Origin: Actinomycetes bacterium | GTDB taxonomy: Bacteria; Actinomycetota; Acidimicrobiia; Acidimicrobiales; Palsa-688 | Reading direction: 5' to 3' | DNA length: 64,000 nt | NCBI GenBank assembly: GCA_021828475.1 | Contig: JAJZIY010000012.1 | Coordinates: 1,010-65,009, forward strand | In this document: one piece after another, positions 6,777-48,740 of the stretch | Layout: each line of letters begins with the position of its first letter | Position numbering within the stretch: the first letter of the stretch is position 1 | Program-made: the position numbers and the translations under genes | The notes under the pieces: model-generated | Told to the model about the DNA's origin: nothing | The model's input: only the letters and a program-made list of their open reading frames with translations | The model's database searches: none

Positions 6777-8402
6777 ATGACTGATCCTGCGCAACACGTC
6801 GCGCCCGGTGAGCGGACCTCGAGGGACCAGCAGTTCGAGTTCATAGTCCTGTCCAACCGGCTCCCCGTGGAGCCCAACCCGCTCGGCGGGGGTATGCGCT
6901 GGAGGCGAAGTCCCGGCGGCCTGGTGTCTGCCCTGCAGCCGGTGATCGCCAAGAGCGGCGGCGCATGGGTCGGCTGGACTGGTGCCCCGGCGTCGGCGAC
7001 CACGGCGGCGGGTGCGCCCGGACCGGCACGCCGCGCGTTCGGCTTGTGGGAGGACACCGGCGAGGTGCAGGTCGTGACCGGCCGGGGTGCCGGCGGTGGT
7101 GGGCCTCAGGTGGGCGCCCGGGTTACCGACATGCTCGGCCTCGGGCGCGACGACCGTGGGCCGGTGTCGGAAGAAGAGGTGCACGCCATACCGGTGCCCC
7201 TGTCCGAGGACGAGGTGGACGCCTACTACGAAGGCTTCTGCAATGCCACTCTCTGGCCTCTCTACCACGACGTCACAGCGCCCCCCGTCTATTCGCGGCG
7301 GTGGTGGCATTCCTACGTCGAGGTCAACCATCGCTTCGCGTCGGCAGCAGCGGCCCACGCGACCGACGGCGCGACCGTGTGGGTGCACGACTACCACCTG
7401 CAGCTCGTGCCGGCCATGCTGCGGGGCTTGCGTGGCGACCTTCGGATCGGTTTCTTCAACCACATACCGTTCCCCCCCTACGACCTCTTCGCCCAGTTGC
7501 CATGGAGGCGCGAGGTGGTGGAGGGGCTCCTCGGAGCGGATCTGATCGGCTTTCAGACGGCGGACGGCGCCGCCAACTTCCTTCGGGCCTGCCGGCGCCT
7601 GACTGACTACCACACGCAGGGCCCGGTGGTGACAGTTCGCCGGCGCAACGGGGCACAGCCCGGTTCGGTGCGGGTGGGGGCGTTCCCCATCTCTGTCGAT
7701 GCAGCGGAGCTCTCGGAGCTCGCCCAGCGCCCCGAGACGGTAGCCCGTGCACTGCAGATCCGTCACGAGCTGGGCGACCCGGACCTCGTCCTGCTCGGAG
7801 TGGACCGTCTCGACTACACCAAGGGCCTCCTGCACCGGCTCCGGGCCTACGGGGAGCTGTTGAAGGAGGGCCGCCTCAGCCCGCCCGGCACCGTCATGGT
7901 GCAGGTCGCCAGCCCGAGCCGGGGCGAGGTCGCGCAGTACAGGAAGCTGCGGGAGGAGCTGGAGAGAGCGGTCGGCAGCATAAACGGCGACTTCTCGCCC
8001 GTCGGTCACCCGGCGCTGCACTACCTGCACCAGAGCTTCCCCAAGGAGGAGATGGCGGCCATGTACCTGGCCGCCGACGTCGCCCTGGTGACGCCCTTGC
8101 GGGACGGCATGAACCTCGTGGCCAAGGAGTACGTGGCCTGCCGTTACGACCTGGGCGGCCGCCTGGTGCTGTCTGAGTTCACCGGCGCCGCCGAGGAGTT
8201 GAAGGGGGCGTTCCTGGTCAACCCTCACGACATCGACAGCCTCAAGGGCCAGATAATGGCCGCTGCGGAGTCCTCCGAGAACCAGACCGCCAGGCGTATG
8301 CGTCGCCTCCGCCAGCGCGTCTTCGCGAACGACGTGCACCGGTGGGCGGCCGAGTTCCTCGGCGCGCTGGCCGGCGAGCAGCGCGGCAGCGCTGCCGGTT
8401 AG
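6777..8402 (+). CDS. otsA: alpha,alpha-trehalose-phosphate synthase (GT20)
   Basis: Motifs [46 protein letters not shown] and [14 protein letters not shown]. Confidence 0.9.
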
Positions 8403-17255: not shown

Positions 17256-18047
17256 GTGGCCCGCGTCCTGGTCGTCGACGACGAACCCGACCTGAGGGAG
17301 CTGGTGCGCATCAGCCTCCAGTTGGCCGGTCATGAGGTGTCGGTGTGCGCCGACGGGGGCGAGGGACTGGACGCCGTGCGCCGTGACCGGCCTGACGTGG
17401 TCGTCCTCGATGTGATGATGCCCGTGATGGACGGCTGGGACGTGCTGAGCCGCCTGAAGTCCGATCCGGACGCCTCGGTGGCGTCCATCCCCGTGCTCAT
17501 GCTCACGGCCAGAGCCGACGAGCTGGACGCCATCCGCGGCGGCATCGAGGGAGCGGTCCACTACCTGACGAAGCCCTTCTCCATCGAGGACCTTCGTTCG
17601 GCGGTGCTCGGCGTGCTCGTAGCCGGTCCCGAACCGGCGCTGCGACGAGCGGCACAGGAGGACGCCCTGGTGCGCCTGGCCCGTCTGGAGCGGGGTACAT
17701 CCGGGCCTGCGGGCCGGCCTCCCGGGCCGCGCATGACCCGCCTCGAGCCGGCCAGTGGCGTCCCCCAGGGCCCGAGCGGGCACTCCCGCGACGCCGGCGC
17801 CTGGCCCAGCTGGTTGGCATCGGCAAGCATGACAGCGCGCGACCGGGAGATACTCGAAGCCGTGATGTCCTGTGCCACTCTCGGCGACGCTCGTGCCACC
17901 CTGCAGTTGAGCCGCAGCTACCTGTACTCGAGACTGCGCCACCTCGCGCACGGGCTGGGTTTTTCCGGCGGCCCGGCGCTCGTTCGAGCACTGCACGCGG
18001 CGAACGCGCTTGCCGAGCGGCCCCCCCGGCCCGGACCGAGCCACTGA
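17256..18047 (+). CDS. orphan response regulator with a divergent C-terminal HTH-like domain
   Basis: Receiver domain VLVVDDEPDLRE..VVVLDVMMPVMDG..LMLTA..YLTKPF. The C-terminus reads TARDREILEAV...LQLSRSYLYSRLRHLAHGLG. There is no kinase gene in the window. Confidence 0.8.
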   Translation: MARVLVVDDEPDLRELVRISLQLAGHEVSVCADGGEGLDAVRRDRPDVVVLDVMMPVMDGWDVLSRLKSDPDASVASIPVLMLTARADELDAIRGGIEGAVHYLTKPFSIEDLRSAVLGVLVAGPEPALRRAAQEDALVRLARLERGTSGPAGRPPGPRMTRLEPASGVPQGPSGHSRDAGAWPSWLASASMTARDREILEAVMSCATLGDARATLQLSRSYLYSRLRHLAHGLGFSGGPALVRALHAANALAERPPRPGPSH

Positions 18048-37859: not shown

Positions 37860-38306
37860 TCAGAGGTGGCGGGACCTGGAGACGAGCGCCCTCTTCCAAC
37901 CGACCGGCACACCAGTTGTCGACGCAGCGGCGGCTATGGCGCCGGCGGCAACGGCGGCAGCGGAAGCGCCGGCTACCAACCAGCGCGAGAGCCTCGGGAT
38001 GTCCCGGGCGCTGAGCGTCCCGCCCATGTCGACGAGGTCGCCGAACGCGCTCACCGCCGCCCAGGTCCTGAGGCGGCCGGGGTTCCCGGCCGCCAACATC
38101 GTCCCAGCACCGAGCACCACGTCCCTCGCCGCCAGCGAGCGCGACAGCACTCGACCGCCTCCGGTGGTCCCGGGCCTGCCGACCCACAGGGCGGCGAGGG
38201 ACGGGACAGCGAGGCAGGCGGCCCCCACGCCGGTGCGTACCACCGCCACACCCACGGCGAGGCGCCTGGCCCGGCCGGGCCCCATGACCGTGGCGGCGGC
38301 CATCAT
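37860..38306 (-). CDS. hypothetical Ala/Gly-rich membrane protein (148 aa)
   Basis: ATG 38306 overlaps the stop of the upstream HypA-like gene (ATGA). Contains MMAAATVMGPGRARRLAVGVAVVRTGVGAACLAVPSLAALWV... and a C-terminal TM segment WLVAGASAAAVAAGAIAAAA. Confidence 0.5.
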   Translation of the reverse strand: MMAAATVMGPGRARRLAVGVAVVRTGVGAACLAVPSLAALWVGRPGTTGGGRVLSRSLAARDVVLGAGTMLAAGNPGRLRTWAAVSAFGDLVDMGGTLSARDIPRLSRWLVAGASAAAVAAGAIAAAASTTGVPVGWKRALVSRSRHL

Positions 38307-38704
38307 GCCGGAGCCGGAGGTACCAGGCAAAGTGTGCCGGGATCTGGGGCGAACGTAACGGACTCGAGCACCGCGCCCTCCCCGAGGGCCCACTGGGTCA
38401 CCAGTGACTGGCAGGACGGGCAGACGACGAGGGCGGCCACGACAGAGCCCGTTCGGGGCAGCCCCTCGCTCGGCTGGACGTGGGCGCCGCAGTCCTCGCA
38501 ATAGAGGGGGCTGCGGTCAGTGCGGACCTCCACGGACGCACCCTCGGCCGCCGACCCGGCTGAGAGAAGGTGGAAGCCTCGCTCGATTGCTCCGGCGTCC
38601 AACCTGTCACCCGCGACGCGTACCCTGACTGCTCCCACCCGGCGTCCGCCGGCCCTCCTCAGGGCCGCCTCGACAATTCCCTGGCACAACTTCAGCTCCT
38701 GCAC
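38303..38704 (-). CDS. HypA-like zinc-ribbon protein with His2 replaced by Gln
   Basis: GTG 38704 lies 8 nt after GAGGAG and gives (M)QELKLCQGIVEAALRRAGGRRVGAVRVRV...AEGASVEV...YCEDCG...VCPSCQ. This aligns with my recollection of the E. coli HypA N-terminus MHEITLCQRALELIE...RVTGVWLKIG...AEGCKLHL and its two CxxC pairs. Confidence 0.6.
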   Translation of the reverse strand: MQELKLCQGIVEAALRRAGGRRVGAVRVRVAGDRLDAGAIERGFHLLSAGSAAEGASVEVRTDRSPLYCEDCGAHVQPSEGLPRTGSVVAALVVCPSCQSLVTQWALGEGAVLESVTFAPDPGTLCLVPPAPA

Positions 38705-38963
38705 GACCACCTCTCCTCTCGGGGCCGGGGCGCGGCAGGGCTCCGCCCCGGGGGTGCAAGTTATGTACAGTCCCAACCACTGCGTTGGAGGGCAGCCCGA
38801 GAAGCTGGCCGGCCTCGTTGGGCCGGGCCGAGAGCCTACGGCCCGACCGCCAGAGCGGTACCCGGGGCCGGCGCGTACCGTCCCCCGGACCGTTCGCGCC
38901 ACGACCGGCCTCCACCGGCCGGCCGTCGCACGTTCCATCACGCTCCCGAAACCTGTCCGGGCC

Positions 38964-39131
38964 TCACCAGTGGTACCAGCGGCCGCCGCCCGCTCCGGAG
39001 CGGAAAGCGAAGCCGGCCAGCCAGAACAGCAGCACGATTGCCGCCGCGATCCACAGCCAGTGCAGGGTGAAGCCAAGGCCGAAAAGCACTATCGCCAGCA
39101 AGAGGAACAAGAGGATTGCAGCCAATTTCAC
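38964..39131 (-). CDS. small hydrophobic two-TM protein (55 aa)
   Basis: GTG 39131 follows AAGGGAG. Sequence: VKLAAILLFLLLAIVLFGLGFTLHWLWIAAAIVLLFWLAGFAFRSGAGGGRWYHW. Confidence 0.5.
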   Translation of the reverse strand: MKLAAILLFLLLAIVLFGLGFTLHWLWIAAAIVLLFWLAGFAFRSGAGGGRWYHW

Positions 39132-39292
39132 ACTCCCTTTCGATGGGGCGTCAGGCCCCGCCTGGTACCGGCTGCCTATGCATGCAGCGGTACCGCTAGT
39201 TCGGGGACGGCTGCCCCCGGTGATCCGAACATGTACCCACCGAGGCGCCGGCGAACACAATCCGCGCGCCAAACGCGGTGGCAGCTGTCCGG

Positions 39293-39535
39293 TCAACGCC
39301 CGCCGGAACCGCGGAAAGCCTCGACCAACGCCTCGTTGAAGGCCTTCAGGTCATCGGGCCGACGGCTGGTGACGAGCACGTTGGGGCCGGGGAGGCAGAC
39401 AGTCACCTCTTCGTCCACCCAGGTGCCGCCCGCGTTGCGGATGTCCGTCTGCAGGCTCGGCCAGGACGTCATCGTGCGGCCCTGGGCGCGCCCCGCCTCG
39501 ACGATGCTCCACGGCCCGTGGCAGATGGCGGCCAC
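39293..39535 (-). pseudogene. C-terminal remnant of a DJ-1/PfpI family protein
   Basis: [46 protein letters not shown]...[21 protein letters not shown] matches only the last ~85 residues of PfpI proteins. An in-frame TAG (39553..39551) lies 5 codons upstream of KPVAAICHG, and I find no recognisable N-terminal half in any frame before the tRNA. Confidence 0.65.
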
Positions 39536-39758
39536 CGGCTTGCGAGCGGCCTACCCGCCCGCATGACCCACGACACCTCCGGCCTCGCACGGAGCCGTAG
39601 TGCCACGAGAGGCCTCGGCCCTCTTTGGCACGGCAACTCCTCCAGGTTCCGGCGGGGCTTGTCGTGCCCGCCAAAGAGCCAAAGGCTCCTCGAGGAGCAC
39701 CTGGAAGGTCCGGGCCACACCCGGCAGGTTCCGATGGCACCAGAATTGGGATGCCCGG

Positions 39759-39832
39759 TGGAGCCCGGGAGGAGGATCGAACTCCTATCGCCTGATTACA
39801 AGGCAGGTGCTCTACCATTGAGCTACCCGGGC
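39759..39832 (-). tRNA. tRNA-Thr (anticodon UGU), CCA encoded
   Basis: Manual cloverleaf: GCCCGGG-TA-GCTC-AATGGTA-GAGC-A-CCTGC-CTTGTAA-TCAGG-CGAT-AGGAG-TTCGATC-CTCCT-CCCGGGC-T-CCA. The acceptor, D and T stems are perfect. There is one C-U mismatch at 31:39 and a 4-nt variable loop. Confidence 0.85.
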
Positions 39833-40811: not shown

Positions 40812-41630
40812 GTGAGCGGGCCCCCGTCGCTTGTGGACTGGTCGGCGTGGTGGGAGCATCCCGGGCGCTCCGGGGTGCTGACGGACTTCGACGGGACTCT
40901 CTCGGCGATCGTGGAGGACCCGTCCCGTGCTGTCGCCCTGCCCGGGGTCAGGCAAGTGCTGGCCAGGCTGGCTGCCAGCCTGGGGATGGTCGCTGTCGTC
41001 TCGGGCAGGCCGGTGGCGTACCTGGGCAGCCGGCTGCCCGACCTGCCCCGTGTTGCGCTGTTCGGTCTCTACGGCCTGGAGTCACTGTGCGGCGGTCGGC
41101 TGGAGGTTGCTCCCGCCGCCCTGGCATGGCAGGAGGCGGTCTCGGGCACTGCCGAGCGGGCGGCGGCGGAAGCACCTCCGGGTGTCGACGTCGAACGCAA
41201 GGGCCTCGCCGTGGCCCTGCACGTCCGGCGGCACCCCGAGCTGGCCGGCTGGGTGGCCGCATGGGCGGCCGAGGCAGCGGCCGCCACGGGGTTGCTCGCC
41301 CAGCACGGACGGCTCTCGGTGGAGCTGCTGCCCCCTCTGAGGGCCGACAAAGGCACCGTCGTCGAGGGCGTGGCGGGTGACCTCGACGCGGTTTGCTTCG
41401 TCGGCGACGACACCGCCGACCTGCCTGCCTTCGCTGCCTTGAGCAAGGCACGCCGAGAGGGCAAGACGACCCTCGCCATTGGTGCAAGCAGCGCAGAGCA
41501 ACCCGAAGGGCTCGCCCGGGTGGTCGACGTGATGGTCGAGGGGCCGAAGGGGGCTCTCGCGGTCCTGAGACAGCTCGCCGACGGTCTCGCCGACAGGGGA
41601 AGCGGCCGCCGTCGGGACACACCGGCCTGA
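40812..41630 (+). CDS. otsB: trehalose-phosphatase (HAD)
   Basis: Contains VLTDFDGTLSAIV, SGRP and FVGDDTADLPAF. Confidence 0.85.
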   Translation: MSGPPSLVDWSAWWEHPGRSGVLTDFDGTLSAIVEDPSRAVALPGVRQVLARLAASLGMVAVVSGRPVAYLGSRLPDLPRVALFGLYGLESLCGGRLEVAPAALAWQEAVSGTAERAAAEAPPGVDVERKGLAVALHVRRHPELAGWVAAWAAEAAAATGLLAQHGRLSVELLPPLRADKGTVVEGVAGDLDAVCFVGDDTADLPAFAALSKARREGKTTLAIGASSAEQPEGLARVVDVMVEGPKGALAVLRQLADGLADRGSGRRRDTPA

Positions 41631-42517: not shown

Positions 42518-42591
42518 GCCGTGATCCGAGGGCCTGCGCCGCGAGGTAACGGCTGGCGGGACTTTCGCACCGGTCCTAACATTGGGGTACA

Positions 42592-42692
42592 TCATCCAGA
42601 GCGGCTGAGGGACGGGCCCGACGACGCCGCGGCAACCAGTGAGCTCGGCCGTTGGGCGGGGCGGCGCATGGTGCCAATGCCCGAGCCGATGA
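42592..42692 (+). promoter_or_regulatory. SAM riboswitch aptamer (SAM-I core without P4; SAM-IV or SAM-I/IV-like)
   Basis: UCAUCCAGAGCGGCUGAGGGACGGGCCCGACGACGCCGCGGCAACC-N32-GGUGCCAAUGCCCGAGCCGAUGA matches the conserved SAM-I core nearly base for base. The P1 3' strand abuts SD GAGGAGG (42691..42697) and GTG 42702. Confidence 0.75.
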
Positions 42693-42701
42693 GGAGGCAG
42701 T

Positions 42702-43943
42702 GTGCCGTTCGTTGAGGGACTTCGTTGTCGTGAGTGTGCGCGCTCCTATCCCGCCGAGGCGCTGCACGTCTGCGAGTGGTGCTTCGGCCCGCTCGAAGTG
42801 GTCTACGACTACGAGGCGATCACCGCTTCGACGTCGCGCCAGCGCATAGCCGCCGGCCCGAGGACCATCTGGCGCTATGCCGACCTGCTGCCCGCCGGGG
42901 CGGAGGGCGCCGTCGACCTCGGTGCGGGCATGACACCGCTGCTTCGCGCCGACCGCCTCGGTGCCGAGCTCGGCCTGTCGGACCTGTGGGTGAAGAACGA
43001 CACGGTCAACCCGACCGGCTCGTTCAAGGACCGGGTCGTGTCTGTGGCGTTGACCAGGGCGCGCGAGCTCGGCTTCAAGGTCGCCGCCTGCGCCTCCACC
43101 GGCAACCTGGCCAACTCCGTGGCCGCCCATGCGGCCAGGGCGGGCATGCGTTCGGTGGTGTGCATCCCCGCCGACCTCGAGGTACCCAAGGTGGTGAGCA
43201 CCGGCGTCTTCGGGGGCTACCTGGTCGCGCTCAACGGCAACTACGACGACGTCAACCGGCTGTGTGCCGAGCTGGCGAGCGAGTACCCCACGTGGGCTTT
43301 CGTCAACGTCAACGTGCGCAGCTACTACGCCGAGGGCTCCAAGACCCTGGCTTTCGAGGTCGCCGAGCAGCTCGGCTGGCGTGCTCCCGACCACGTCGTC
43401 GTCCCGATCGCCTCCGGCAGCCAGCTCACGAAGATCGCCAAGGGCTTCCGCGAGCTCCACAAGGTCGGTTTGCTCGACGACGAGCCTCATGTGCGCATCT
43501 CGGGAGCCCAGGCGGCCGGGTGTTCGCCCGTGGCCGACGCCTTCGCCAGCGGGGCGGACTTCGTGAAACCGGTGAAGCCGACGGGCATCGCCAAGTCCCT
43601 CGCCATCGGGAACCCGGCGGACGGGGGGTACGCCCTCGACGAGGTCAGGCGTTCGGGTGGTGCCATCGGCGCGGTCACCGACGAGGAGATCGTGGAGGGC
43701 ATCAAGCTCCTCGCCCGGACCGAGGGCGTCTTCGCCGAGACGGCCGGCGGTGTGACCGTCGCCGTGCTGGCCAAGCTCGCCGCCGCAGGCGTGGTCAAGC
43801 CCAACGAGAGAGTGGTCGCCTACATCACGGGCAACGGCCTGAAGACGCTGGACGCGGTGGCAGCCACCTGCGGGCCGACGGTGACGGTGGCGCCAAACCT
43901 CGAAGCCTTCCAGGCCGCCGTGCACGTGGCAGACTGGCAGTGA
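42702..43943 (+). CDS. threonine synthase homologue (PLP fold type II) with an N-terminal CxxC-x11-CxxC zinc ribbon; candidate sulfur-carrier-dependent homocysteine synthase
   Basis: Contains MPFVEGLRCRECARSYPAEALHVCEWC and the PLP lysine motif TGSFKDRVVS. 413 aa. It lies downstream of the SAM riboswitch and upstream of a MoaD-like gene. Confidence 0.85.
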   Translation: MPFVEGLRCRECARSYPAEALHVCEWCFGPLEVVYDYEAITASTSRQRIAAGPRTIWRYADLLPAGAEGAVDLGAGMTPLLRADRLGAELGLSDLWVKNDTVNPTGSFKDRVVSVALTRARELGFKVAACASTGNLANSVAAHAARAGMRSVVCIPADLEVPKVVSTGVFGGYLVALNGNYDDVNRLCAELASEYPTWAFVNVNVRSYYAEGSKTLAFEVAEQLGWRAPDHVVVPIASGSQLTKIAKGFRELHKVGLLDDEPHVRISGAQAAGCSPVADAFASGADFVKPVKPTGIAKSLAIGNPADGGYALDEVRRSGGAIGAVTDEEIVEGIKLLARTEGVFAETAGGVTVAVLAKLAAAGVVKPNERVVAYITGNGLKTLDAVAATCGPTVTVAPNLEAFQAAVHVADWQ

Positions 43944-44016
43944 CCACCTCGCCGGCCGCCCGGGCGTCGCTGGTGGTCGCTTGCCGGTTCCCGTACCTCT
44001 CAGGAGACACGCCCAG

Positions 44017-44295
44017 ATGAGCGTCAAAGTCCGTATCCCCACCCAGCTCAGGTCCCTTTCCGGCGGCGCAGGCGAGGTGGAGGTGGAGGCGGCGACCGTG
44101 GGGGACGCCCTCCGGGCGCTCGACTCCGCTCACCCCGGTTTCGCTGAGCGCCTGTTCGACGAGGGTGGCGGACTGCGCAGGTTCGTCAACGTCTTCATGG
44201 GCGAGGAGGACATCCGGTTCCTCGACGGCCTGGGGACGCCGACGCCGTCGGGCTGCACCGTCTCCGTCGTGCCTGCCGTCGCCGGCGGACAGTAG
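44017..44295 (+). CDS. MoaD/ThiS/CysO-like sulfur-carrier protein ending ...VPAVAGGQ
   Basis: ATG 44017 follows CAGGAGA. 92 aa: MSVKVRIPTQLRSLSGGAGEVEVEAATVGDALRAL...VSVVPAVAGGQ. It has a beta-grasp-like length and a GG motif with one extra residue. Confidence 0.8.
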   Translation: MSVKVRIPTQLRSLSGGAGEVEVEAATVGDALRALDSAHPGFAERLFDEGGGLRRFVNVFMGEEDIRFLDGLGTPTPSGCTVSVVPAVAGGQ

Positions 44296-44411
44296 GGGCC
44301 GCCCAGGGGCTGCCGGCCCCGGCCACCCACCACCGCCCGGGGGCCGGTCCCGTCGCTTTTTCAGCCCTCCGAGGCGCAGCTTGCGCGCGAACCGCCCGTT
44401 GCGGTGTACTG

Positions 44412-46111
<1,700 letters not shown>

Positions 46112-46810: not shown

Positions 46811-46909
46811 GCGGTCGGGGCCGTCGATGACCGGATGGCGCCCGGCAGTGGCCCGGCCGGTACCGGTGGCGGCCTGCAGCCGTCGGCAACCGCCGTAGCA
46901 TTGGCTTCG

Positions 46910-47611
46910 ATGAGCATGATGCCGTTGTCGCCCGCCGAGGGATGGGGCGTTCTCCACCTCTTCTTCAAGACGTCGCCCGCCGTGGACTCCGAGGCGGTGA
47001 CGGCCGCCGTCAAGTGGGCGGAGGGCTCCGGCCTCGAGGTTGTCTGCTTTGCCGTGCTGGGCCACAAGGCGGACATGGCGGCGATGCTGCTCGGGCCCGA
47101 CCTGGTGGCCCTGCGGCGGGCCCAGAGCGCTCTGTGCGCAGCCGGCCTCGAGCTGACCGGCTCCTATCTCTCGCTCACGGAGGTGTCCGAGTACGCCAAG
47201 GGGATGCCGGCCGAGCGGCTGGAGCCGCGCCTGCACCCCAAGCTGCCGCCCGAGGGCAAGCGGGCCGTCTGCTTCTACCCGATGTCCAAGCGGCGCGACG
47301 GTGATGACAACTGGTACAGGCTCGACTACGACTCGCGCCTCTCGCTCATGTACGAGCACGGGGCCAGCGGGCGCAAGTTCGCGGGCCGGGTCCTGCAACT
47401 CGTGACCGGCTCAACAGGTCTGGACGACTACGAGTGGGGCGTGACACTGTTCGCCAACACCCCCGACGACCTCAAGCAGTGTGTGTACTCGATGCGCTTC
47501 GACGAGGCGTCGGCGCGCTTTGGCGACTTCGGCCCGTTCTACACAGGCGTCGTCGGGCCTGTGGAGCAGGTCCTGGCTGCCTGTGGGCTCCTGCCCGGCA
47601 ACGAGCCGTGA
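46910..47611 (+). CDS. hemQ: coproheme decarboxylase / chlorite-dismutase family protein
   Basis: Contains GWGVLHLFFK, VCFYPMSKRR, NWYRL and YSMRFDEASARFG. The start is uncertain (46835 or 46910). Confidence 0.85.
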   Translation: MSMMPLSPAEGWGVLHLFFKTSPAVDSEAVTAAVKWAEGSGLEVVCFAVLGHKADMAAMLLGPDLVALRRAQSALCAAGLELTGSYLSLTEVSEYAKGMPAERLEPRLHPKLPPEGKRAVCFYPMSKRRDGDDNWYRLDYDSRLSLMYEHGASGRKFAGRVLQLVTGSTGLDDYEWGVTLFANTPDDLKQCVYSMRFDEASARFGDFGPFYTGVVGPVEQVLAACGLLPGNEP

Positions 47612-48498
47612 CCGCCGCTTCTGTCGTCGACGTCCACCTCCAGCAACTCCGGGACCAGCTGGCGGCCCTGGGGCCCGTGGTCGTCGCCTTCAGCGGGGGC
47701 GCTGACTCCGCCTTCCTGGCATTCGCGGCCCACCAGGTCCTGGGCTCCTGCGGGGCGATGGCCGTGACGGCTGTGTCGGCGTCGCTGGCTCCGACGGAGC
47801 TCGAGGACTGTCGGGCGCTGGCCGCCGAGTGGGGCCTCAACTATCGCGAGGTCGAGACCAGCGAGACGGCGAAGCCCGCCTACATAGCCAACGGAGGCGA
47901 CAGGTGCTGGCACTGCAAAGACGAGCTGATGCGCTGTGTCGCTCCAGTGGCCGCAGCCTTCTCGCAGGCCTCTCCGAAGGCCGGCAGCAGGCCGGACGGC
48001 TCCCCGCCCGCCCGGGTGCTGCTCGGGGTAAACCTCGACGACCTGGGTGAGTACCGGCCCGGCCAGGCGGCGGCGCAGGCTGCGGGCGCGGTGTTCCCCC
48101 TCGTCGAAGCCGGTTTCACCAAGACAATGGTGCGAGAAGCCTCACGCCTGCTCGGTCTGCGGACCTGGGACAAGCCGGCCGCGGCCTGCCTGGCGTCGCG
48201 GGTCCCTTACGGCACACCGGTCAGTCTCGGCACGCTGAGCGCTGTCGCCAAGGCCGAAGCGGGCCTGCGCTCGCTCGGGTTCCGTTCGCTGCGGGTGCGC
48301 CACTACGGGGACACGGCCCGGGTAGAGCTCCCCCTCTCGGACCTGGGCAGGGCGCTTGACGAGCGTGAGGATCTTGTCCGAGCCGTACGCGCTGCCGGCT
48401 ACCGGTACGTGACCCTCGACCTGGAAGGGCTGCGCTCGGGTAACCTCAACGCCGCCCTGGGCGACCCGGGCACCACCCGCCAGGAGGTAGCCAAGTGA
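47608..48498 (+). CDS. LarE-like PP-loop ATP pyrophosphatase (three-Cys type)
   Basis: GTG 47608 overlaps the hemQ stop (GTGA). Contains the PP-loop VAFSGGADSAF, DRCWHCKDEL and PAAACLASRVPYG. Confidence 0.8.
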   Translation: MTAASVVDVHLQQLRDQLAALGPVVVAFSGGADSAFLAFAAHQVLGSCGAMAVTAVSASLAPTELEDCRALAAEWGLNYREVETSETAKPAYIANGGDRCWHCKDELMRCVAPVAAAFSQASPKAGSRPDGSPPARVLLGVNLDDLGEYRPGQAAAQAAGAVFPLVEAGFTKTMVREASRLLGLRTWDKPAAACLASRVPYGTPVSLGTLSAVAKAEAGLRSLGFRSLRVRHYGDTARVELPLSDLGRALDEREDLVRAVRAAGYRYVTLDLEGLRSGNLNAALGDPGTTRQEVAK

Positions 48499-48740
48499 CA
48501 CCGACATCCGTGCGCGCCCGTTTGACGTTCCCAGAGGTACTGGTCGGCGAGCCGGTCATATCGCGTCTGGCCCTCGACTACGGCGTGACGGCCAACATCC
48601 GCCGGGCCAATGTCGAGGAGCACGCCGGGTGGATCGTCTGCGAGCTTGCGGGGGAGCGCGAAAGGCTCGACGAGGCCGTGGAATGGCTCGAGGGCCACGG
48701 CATCAAGGTGGACTGGCTGGGCGGCGGCGTCGAGAGCTGA
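48495..48740 (+). CDS. stand-alone NIL domain protein (81 aa)
   Basis: GTG 48495 overlaps the LarE-like stop (GTGA). Sequence: RLTFPEVLVGEPVISRLALDYGVTANIRRANVEEHAGWIVCELAGERERLDEAVEWLEGHGIKVD. Confidence 0.75.
   Translation: MTPTSVRARLTFPEVLVGEPVISRLALDYGVTANIRRANVEEHAGWIVCELAGERERLDEAVEWLEGHGIKVDWLGGGVES

Follow-up and report, generated by a model that had tools for sequence, protein, structure and literature searches.

Streptomyces albulus makes homocysteine from O-phosphohomoserine with MetM, a homologue of threonine synthase (ThrC) that is often misannotated as threonine synthase (Hasebe et al. 2024, as cited in the GapMind 2026 preprint). According to that preprint, MetM uses the thiocarboxylate of MetO, a protein that is matured by Mec and loaded with sulfur by MoeZ; an S-adenosylmethionine (SAM) riboswitch upstream of S. 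albulus metM is described in PMC12172450. Here we compare these descriptions with a locus in a 64-kb stretch of DNA (the window) of 70% G+C from an uncultured Acidimicrobiales bacterium, where a SAM-I riboswitch precedes a gene for a ThrC homologue and a gene for a small carrier protein. An earlier note on the window had proposed SAM-regulated, thiocarboxylate-dependent homocysteine synthesis by this pair, and had named a Streptomyces MetM/MetO pair as converting O-phosphohomoserine to homocysteine. This agrees with the GapMind 2026 preprint, and all of the features that the note had named were found where it had placed them, none being a chance match.

The locus is most likely, with a probability of roughly 0.85, an operon of two genes, metM and metO, that serves homocysteine synthesis with a protein thiocarboxylate as sulfur donor and is switched off by SAM. 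This core proposal is supported by the riboswitch, the conserved pairing of enzyme and carrier, the CysO-type carrier, a remodelled substrate pocket and synteny with Nonomuraea, the enzymatic function being predicted from these. The pathway is already known (S. albulus, 2024); the window is its Acidimicrobiales copy in a new lineage, and brings the MetM/MetO route with its SAM riboswitch to uncultured Acidimicrobiales. Acidimicrobium has been listed among organisms without a recognisable route to homocysteine (Price et al. 2018), a gap that MetM/MetO plausibly fills.

In the proposed mechanism, MetO would be made with an extra C-terminal glutamine, and a JAMM/Mec-type hydrolase encoded elsewhere would trim it to Gly-Gly. 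A MoeZ/ThiF-type E1, also encoded elsewhere, would adenylate the terminal glycine, leading to the thiocarboxylate. MetM, a pyridoxal phosphate (PLP) enzyme of the threonine-synthase fold, would eliminate phosphate from O-phospho-L-homoserine, and the MetO thiocarboxylate would attack C-gamma, in place of the ThrC-type addition of water at C-beta; release from the carrier would yield homocysteine. The sequence shows directly the layout of the locus, the family to which each part belongs, the conservation of the pairing and of the riboswitch, and a pocket that has diverged from that of ThrC; from it we infer the substrate and the product, how the glutamine is processed, which E1 and protease act, and that the switch works on translation.

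The operon and its SAM-I riboswitch

The features of the operon and of the gene that follows it are these:

42589..42695, plus strand: SAM-I (S-box) riboswitch aptamer, operon leader (Rfam RF00162)
42691..42697, plus strand: Shine-Dalgarno sequence GAGGAGG, overlapping or abutting the 3' strand of P1 (GAUGAGG) (sequence inspection)
42702..43943, plus strand: metM-like gene, GTG start, encoding a 413-aa ThrC-fold PLP enzyme (open reading frame and family matches)
44017..44295, plus strand: metO-like gene, ATG start, encoding a 92-aa CysO/MoaD/ThiS-family carrier that ends PAVAGG-Q (Pfam ThiS, NCBIfam SAMP1/MoaD)
44338..44362, plus strand: terminator-like hairpin and T-run, closing the metM-metO unit before groEL (pattern scan)
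44412-44438: perfect CIRCE operator, TTAGCACTC-N9-GAGTGCTAA, just upstream of groEL
44489-46111, plus strand: groEL, CIRCE-controlled

The presence of the riboswitch is confirmed by Rfam, as the leader of the enzyme gene matches RF00162 at 60.6 bits (gathering score 44.4, E = 1.4e-11) over the full length of the model (positions 1-108). On this sequence evidence, the riboswitch places the metM-like gene in the predicted methionine/SAM regulon. The aptamer ends at 42695, 6 nt ahead of the start codon at 42702, and a terminator would not fit between the two. The P1 3' strand GAUGAGG continues into the Shine-Dalgarno sequence GAGGAGG, and in about 25 Acidimicrobiia loci CGATGA-GGAGG is likewise followed, after 4-8 nt, by the start codon. 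This suggests a translational OFF switch, in which P1 stabilised by SAM would occlude the Shine-Dalgarno sequence: high SAM would stabilise P1, and since the P1 3' strand runs into the Shine-Dalgarno sequence, translation of metM would be blocked. A scan for sigma-70 promoters found none, as is expected for an actinobacterium of 70% G+C.

The distribution of the riboswitch was followed in a survey of one genome per species, comprising 80 loci whose encoded relatives share 58-87% identity with the window enzyme. Besides Acidimicrobiia, the loci represent other Actinomycetota as well as Cyanobacteriota, Chloroflexota, Nitrospirota, Armatimonadota and Aquificota. The enzyme gene of at least 44 loci follows a SAM-I riboswitch (35 found by a strict motif search and nine more by Rfam cmscan), covering nearly all Acidimicrobiia and several Chloroflexota, and one is also present in Nonomuraea. 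None was found in the 14 cyanobacterial loci examined, in agreement with PMC12172450. One cyanobacterial locus (L046) has an unrelated glutamine riboswitch (RF01739, 49 bits; 17872-17954, minus strand) about 6.6 kb downstream of its metM homologue.

The order metM-metO-groEL is kept across Actinomycetota, including Nonomuraea, and presumably also in Streptomyces (SCO4293-4296). In the complete genome of Nonomuraea gerenzanensis, a cultured actinomycete, a SAM-I riboswitch, a MetM-like gene (55% identical), a MetO ending in GG and groEL follow one another as in the window. This organism has in addition a separate canonical thrC, whose product shares 64% identity with M. tuberculosis ThrC. Its mec-cysO-cysM cluster is 2.6 Mb from metM-metO, measured across the circular chromosome, and its MoeZ-like E1 is 0.7 Mb away. 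Its 11.85-Mb chromosome is filed in PLSDB as "plasmid I" (NZ_LT559118.1, loci L081 and L089), with 10 annotated features.

The enzyme clade and its presumed phosphate pocket

Public gene calls agree on the 413-aa product of the metM-like gene and on the metO product. The identical enzyme is found in public metagenome-assembled genomes (MAGs), on contigs of up to 290 kb, and its best matches are Acidimicrobiales MAGs. It matches Pfam PALP at 240 bits. Against the closer model NF006050 it scores 286.9 bits, under the cutoff of 303; the cysM model TIGR01138 gives 39.7 bits (cutoff 394), and the cysteate synthase model TIGR03844 a weak partial match of 69.8 bits (cutoff 325). The two motifs that had been noticed in its sequence are both present: the PLP-lysine motif SFKDR at residues 107-111, and an N-terminal ribbon which reads C9-x2-C12-x11-C24-x2-C27 in the translation. 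The enzyme scores 187-208 bits against four solved bacterial ThrCs and 146 bits against Arabidopsis ThrC. Members of its clade are 55-90% identical to it (55-61% for those of other orders or phyla), as compared with 32-40% for the five solved ThrCs.

An alignment of 82 clade members with the five solved ThrCs, with the T. thermophilus numbering checked against K61 in 1UIM, contains about 30 positions outside the N-terminal ribbon at which one residue is fixed in the clade and another in the ThrCs. Among them are T88 to L136, S155 to N204, R160 to Y209 and N188 to S238 (T. thermophilus ThrC to window protein), each replaced in 82 of 82 clade members; of T88, N154, S155, R160 and N188, only N154 is retained in the clade. 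Other clade-invariant replacements include G112V, N206R, Q213S, A274C, T298K, S307D, P347T and D382T. We take K61, T88, N154, S155, R160 and N188 of T. thermophilus ThrC to be the residues that bind the substrate phosphate, and in ThrC the retained phosphate reportedly steers water to C-beta. The replacement of four of these six residues fits release of the phosphate and attack by a different nucleophile at C-gamma, as would be expected of MetM.

A cysteine at MetM position 274 (AAGCSP) occurs in all 82 clade members, replacing an Ala or Ser of ThrC. This residue could be involved in handling a thioester or acyl intermediate.

Three zinc-ribbon ThrC-like proteins without a carrier neighbour, from Haloprofundus, Bosea and Chlorohelix, served as controls, and they carry the ribbon, not the pocket signature. 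The zinc ribbon was rejected as a marker of MetM on these grounds: it is not diagnostic, and the pocket signature is, because the three carrier-less ribbon proteins lack the signature. The comparison thus supports a sharply delimited enzyme clade, distinct from housekeeping ThrC. Thousands of database entries within the MetM clade are labelled "threonine synthase", and the signature L136, N204, R206, Y209, S213, S238, C274, K298, D307, T347 and T382 could separate MetM from ThrC automatically.

The carrier and its predicted activating enzymes across genomes

The metO-like gene begins after a gap of exactly 73 nt, and its 92-aa product ends VPAVAGGQ, both as first described. The carrier matches Pfam ThiS (42 bits) as well as NCBIfam SAMP1/MoaD. 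Among solved structures, M. tuberculosis CysO comes closest to it (3dwg_C, E = 2.5e-17, aligned over the full length), and another close solved relative is the Amycolatopsis ThiS/MoaD protein 4n6e_B. The PAVAGG tail is invariant among the surveyed loci.

The similarity to CysO, together with the partial cysteate synthase match, which indicates that a ThrC fold can act on O-phosphoserine, could be taken to mean that the pair makes cysteine or another thiol, in the manner of CysM/CysO on O-phosphoserine, with the SAM control being general sulfur-amino-acid regulation. We regard this as extremely unlikely, as the fold of the enzyme is that of ThrC and not of CysK/CysM, and the enzyme falls far below the cysM cutoff (39.7 against 394). 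Furthermore, Nonomuraea has mec-cysO-cysM besides metM-metO, and the characterised homologue uses O-phosphohomoserine (GapMind 2026 preprint).

Among 72 complete carriers adjoining MetM homologues, 58 end in GG, and the remaining 14 (19%) have 1-16 extra residues, namely Q, R, K, I, A, C, LA, AL, SR, SH, SHD or longer extensions. The additional glutamine, which the earlier note had called unusual, is therefore not so. The closest relatives of the window carrier differ in this respect, one ending in GG (L001) and one in GG-SH (L002), and because even such close relatives differ, the extension appears labile and is evidently tolerated. Trimming by a Mec-type hydrolase belongs to the published S. 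albulus pathway (GapMind 2026 preprint).

A carrier homologue lies directly downstream of the enzyme gene, on the same strand and at a distance of 0-400 nt, in 73 of the 80 loci, and this pairing spans Actinomycetota, Cyanobacteriota, Chloroflexota, Nitrospirota and Armatimonadota. The seven loci without a carrier beside the enzyme, some of them cut by contig ends, and the lack of an activating E1 nearby would suit direct sulfhydrylation of O-phosphohomoserine by free sulfide, with MetO dispensable or engaged in another pathway, for instance delivering sulfur to a cofactor. That sulfide is often accepted in vitro by related PLP sulfhydrylases also counts for this explanation. It is nevertheless very unlikely, given the tight same-strand adjacency in the other 73 loci, the invariance of the PAVAGG tail, the full ThiF/JAMM cluster around the pair in Nitrospira (below), and the use of the MetO thiocarboxylate in the published pathway (GapMind 2026 preprint).

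The predicted use of a MetO thiocarboxylate calls for enzymes encoded away from the operon. Genes of the window were called by codon usage, and the scan of the roughly 58 likely products against Pfam found no ThiF, Prok-JAB or rhodanese and no hom or thrB in the 64 kb. A phmmer search with ThiF and JAMM queries against the six-frame open reading frames of at least 60 aa in the window gave no match either. The reported absence of E1, JAMM and rhodanese from the window is thus borne out by the Pfam scan, and for E1 and JAMM also by phmmer. That this absence is unusual is a different matter. In the survey, an E1 occurs within 10 kb in only 3 of the 80 loci, and a JAMM in 1 of 80 (a strict regular expression found none, and a looser pattern gave the single convincing JAMM). 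The window arrangement is therefore the family norm. The missing E1 and JAMM were rejected as an anomaly, as the locus survey and Nonomuraea show these genes to be unlinked. The locus with the JAMM, from Nitrospira (L054, 8198-13149), encodes contiguously a CysK-like PLP enzyme, ThiF, MetM, MetO (GG-SHD), a NIL-domain protein, ThiF and Prok-JAB, so that its extended carrier comes with its own protease.

Several points weigh against the interpretation as metM-metO, and they are gathered here. The roles that we assign to the six pocket residues are presumed ones, and the inventory of host genes (thrB, a second thrC, moeZ and mec) covers the 64-kb window only. At minimum free energy, the leader folds no more stably than shuffled sequence (z = 0.1). 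Orthology to S. albulus MetM/MetO would rest on synteny, shared regulation and transitive identity, not on direct alignment: a cyanobacterial homologue and S. albulus MetM share 51.6% identity (PMC12172450), and the window protein shares 58-61% with cyanobacterial members of the clade. The Streptomyces MetM itself was not found, as tblastn of plasmids gave only Nonomuraea, a representative search and a cluster look-up had no Streptomyces entry, Streptosporangiales dominate among the matches listed in a protein search, and the supplements of PMC12172450 contain no MetM sequence.

Two further points speak for a bifunctional or moonlighting threonine synthase/threonine deaminase, with the carrier having little or no role in methionine synthesis. 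The window enzyme scores 287.6 bits against the NCBIfam thrC equivalog model TIGR00260, above the cutoff of 167.1, and a MetO-linked homologue from Microcystis had ThrC and deaminase activity in vitro and brought no increase in methionine in vivo (PMC12172450). The cyanobacterial genes are without the SAM riboswitch, however, which in the window puts the gene in the methionine/SAM regulon. The invariant replacement of four presumed ThrC phosphate-pocket residues, the carrier pairing kept across five phyla and the separate canonical thrC retained by Nonomuraea likewise make such an enzyme very unlikely, and we favour MetM/MetO-type homocysteine synthesis.

Neighbouring genes and comparison with known systems

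Further genes on either side of the operon are as follows:

6777-8402, plus strand: OtsA-like GT20 gene
40812-41630, plus strand: trehalose-phosphatase-like gene
41705-42517/42595, minus strand: gpgS, glucosyl-3-phosphoglycerate synthase (NF010496, 301 bits)
46835-47611, plus strand: chdC
47608..48498, plus strand: LarE-family PP-loop ATP-dependent sulfur insertase (NCBIfam TIGR00268), possibly associated with metM-metO
48495..48740, plus strand: 81-aa stand-alone NIL-domain protein (Pfam NIL, 65 bits), a candidate third partner or regulator

The chdC, larE-like and NIL genes lie 3.3 kb downstream of metM-metO and overlap by 4 nt each, and are therefore probably translationally coupled. This block is kept downstream of metM-metO-groEL in at least 16 Acidimicrobiia loci. 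In six Chloroflexota loci (L043, L057, L064, L065, L067 and L072) a NIL homologue stands between the two genes, in the order MetM-NIL-MetO, which in L043, L057 and L072 follows a SAM riboswitch. Right after MetO, a NIL homologue is found in the Nitrospira locus L054 and in Armatimonadota (L040 and L041). In a word-index search, the NIL protein matched close relatives from Acidimicrobiales only. NIL domains have been described as regulatory modules that bind methionine, and occur also in the unrelated DUF39/NIL-ferredoxin route to homocysteine. A role for NIL in MetM/MetO is not mentioned in the GapMind 2026 preprint or in the literature searched. We tentatively suggest, at somewhat less than even odds, that the NIL protein works together with MetM/MetO or regulates them. 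As a recurrent neighbour, it offers a lead towards an unrecognised regulatory or accessory component, and is the most novel by-product of the analysis.

The LarE-like protein matches TIGR00268 at 266 bits (cutoff 150) and carries the motifs SGGADS and CxxC...C, the latter of which marks the [4Fe-4S] type of LarE (PMC9283937). No larA, larB or larC was found in the 64-kb window. The chemistry of LarE runs from a carboxylate through an acyl-adenylate to a thiocarboxylate. By analogy, and speculatively, a LarE-type enzyme might thiocarboxylate MetO, or take sulfur from MetO as TtuA does from TtuB. That the LarE homologue charges or reads MetO in Acidimicrobiales without a MoeZ-type E1, with NIL as a methionine-sensing partner of MetM, is highly improbable; if true, it would mean E1-independent charging of a ubiquitin-like sulfur carrier and an undescribed third subunit of the pathway.

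Transcription of gpgS is divergent from the riboswitch. As the window holds gpgS and the trehalose-phosphatase-like and OtsA-like genes, compatible-solute genes flank the locus. A stretch with weak coding signal (37866-39566) contains a HypA-like open reading frame on the minus strand (38303-39076) and, at 39293-39535 on the same strand, an 80-aa fragment whose match to DJ-1/PfpI is confined to the C-terminal part of that family. Beside it is a tRNA-Thr(UGU) gene (39759-39832, minus strand), and the stretch may be a decayed or foreign segment.

Among described systems, the M. tuberculosis CysM/CysO/Mec/MoeZ system shares with the window a CysO-like carrier with the same PAVAGG tail and the same logic, in which a protein thiocarboxylate attacks a PLP-bound unsaturated intermediate and the E1 (MoeZ) is encoded elsewhere. 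It makes cysteine from O-phosphoserine, whereas the window partner of the carrier has the ThrC fold, a predicted C4 phosphoester substrate and a predicted gamma-replacement reaction; the window differs also in having no adjacent mec, and in its SAM riboswitch control. The HcyS/MetY/HcyD/HcyF system of Wolinella succinogenes has a protein thiocarboxylate donor and homocysteine as its product, as is predicted here, and HcyS is said also to need C-terminal trimming by a JAMM protease. In contrast to the window enzyme and its O-phospho substrate, MetY is of fold type I and uses an O-acyl substrate (O-acetylhomoserine), and the E1 and protease genes are clustered with that of the carrier. Canonical ThrCs (T. 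thermophilus 1UIM/1V7C, M. tuberculosis 2D1F, B. subtilis 6CGQ and A. aeolicus 2ZSJ) have the same fold, PLP lysine motif and presumed O-phosphohomoserine substrate at 38-40% identity; the window protein differs by an N-terminal Cys4 ribbon, the replacement of T88, S155, R160 and N188 and of about 20 further ThrC-invariant positions, a carrier partner and SAM control. The Microcystis aeruginosa "ThrC" (BH695_RS11850) belongs to the same clade and has a MetO-like neighbour, but it has no SAM riboswitch and is reported as a threonine-induced threonine synthase/deaminase, methionine synthesis not having been demonstrated (PMC12172450).

The closest system is MetM/MetO of S. albulus. Both it and the window pair a PLP enzyme homologous to ThrC with a neighbouring small carrier, behind a SAM riboswitch; the activation and maturation enzymes, which for the window are predicted, lie outside the two-gene unit, and in both the enzyme is routinely annotated "threonine synthase". 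The window differs in its host, an uncultured member of the Acidimicrobiales, in its carrier, which ends GG-Q, in a riboswitch that appears translational, with the Shine-Dalgarno sequence fused to P1, and in the NIL-domain and LarE-like genes nearby.

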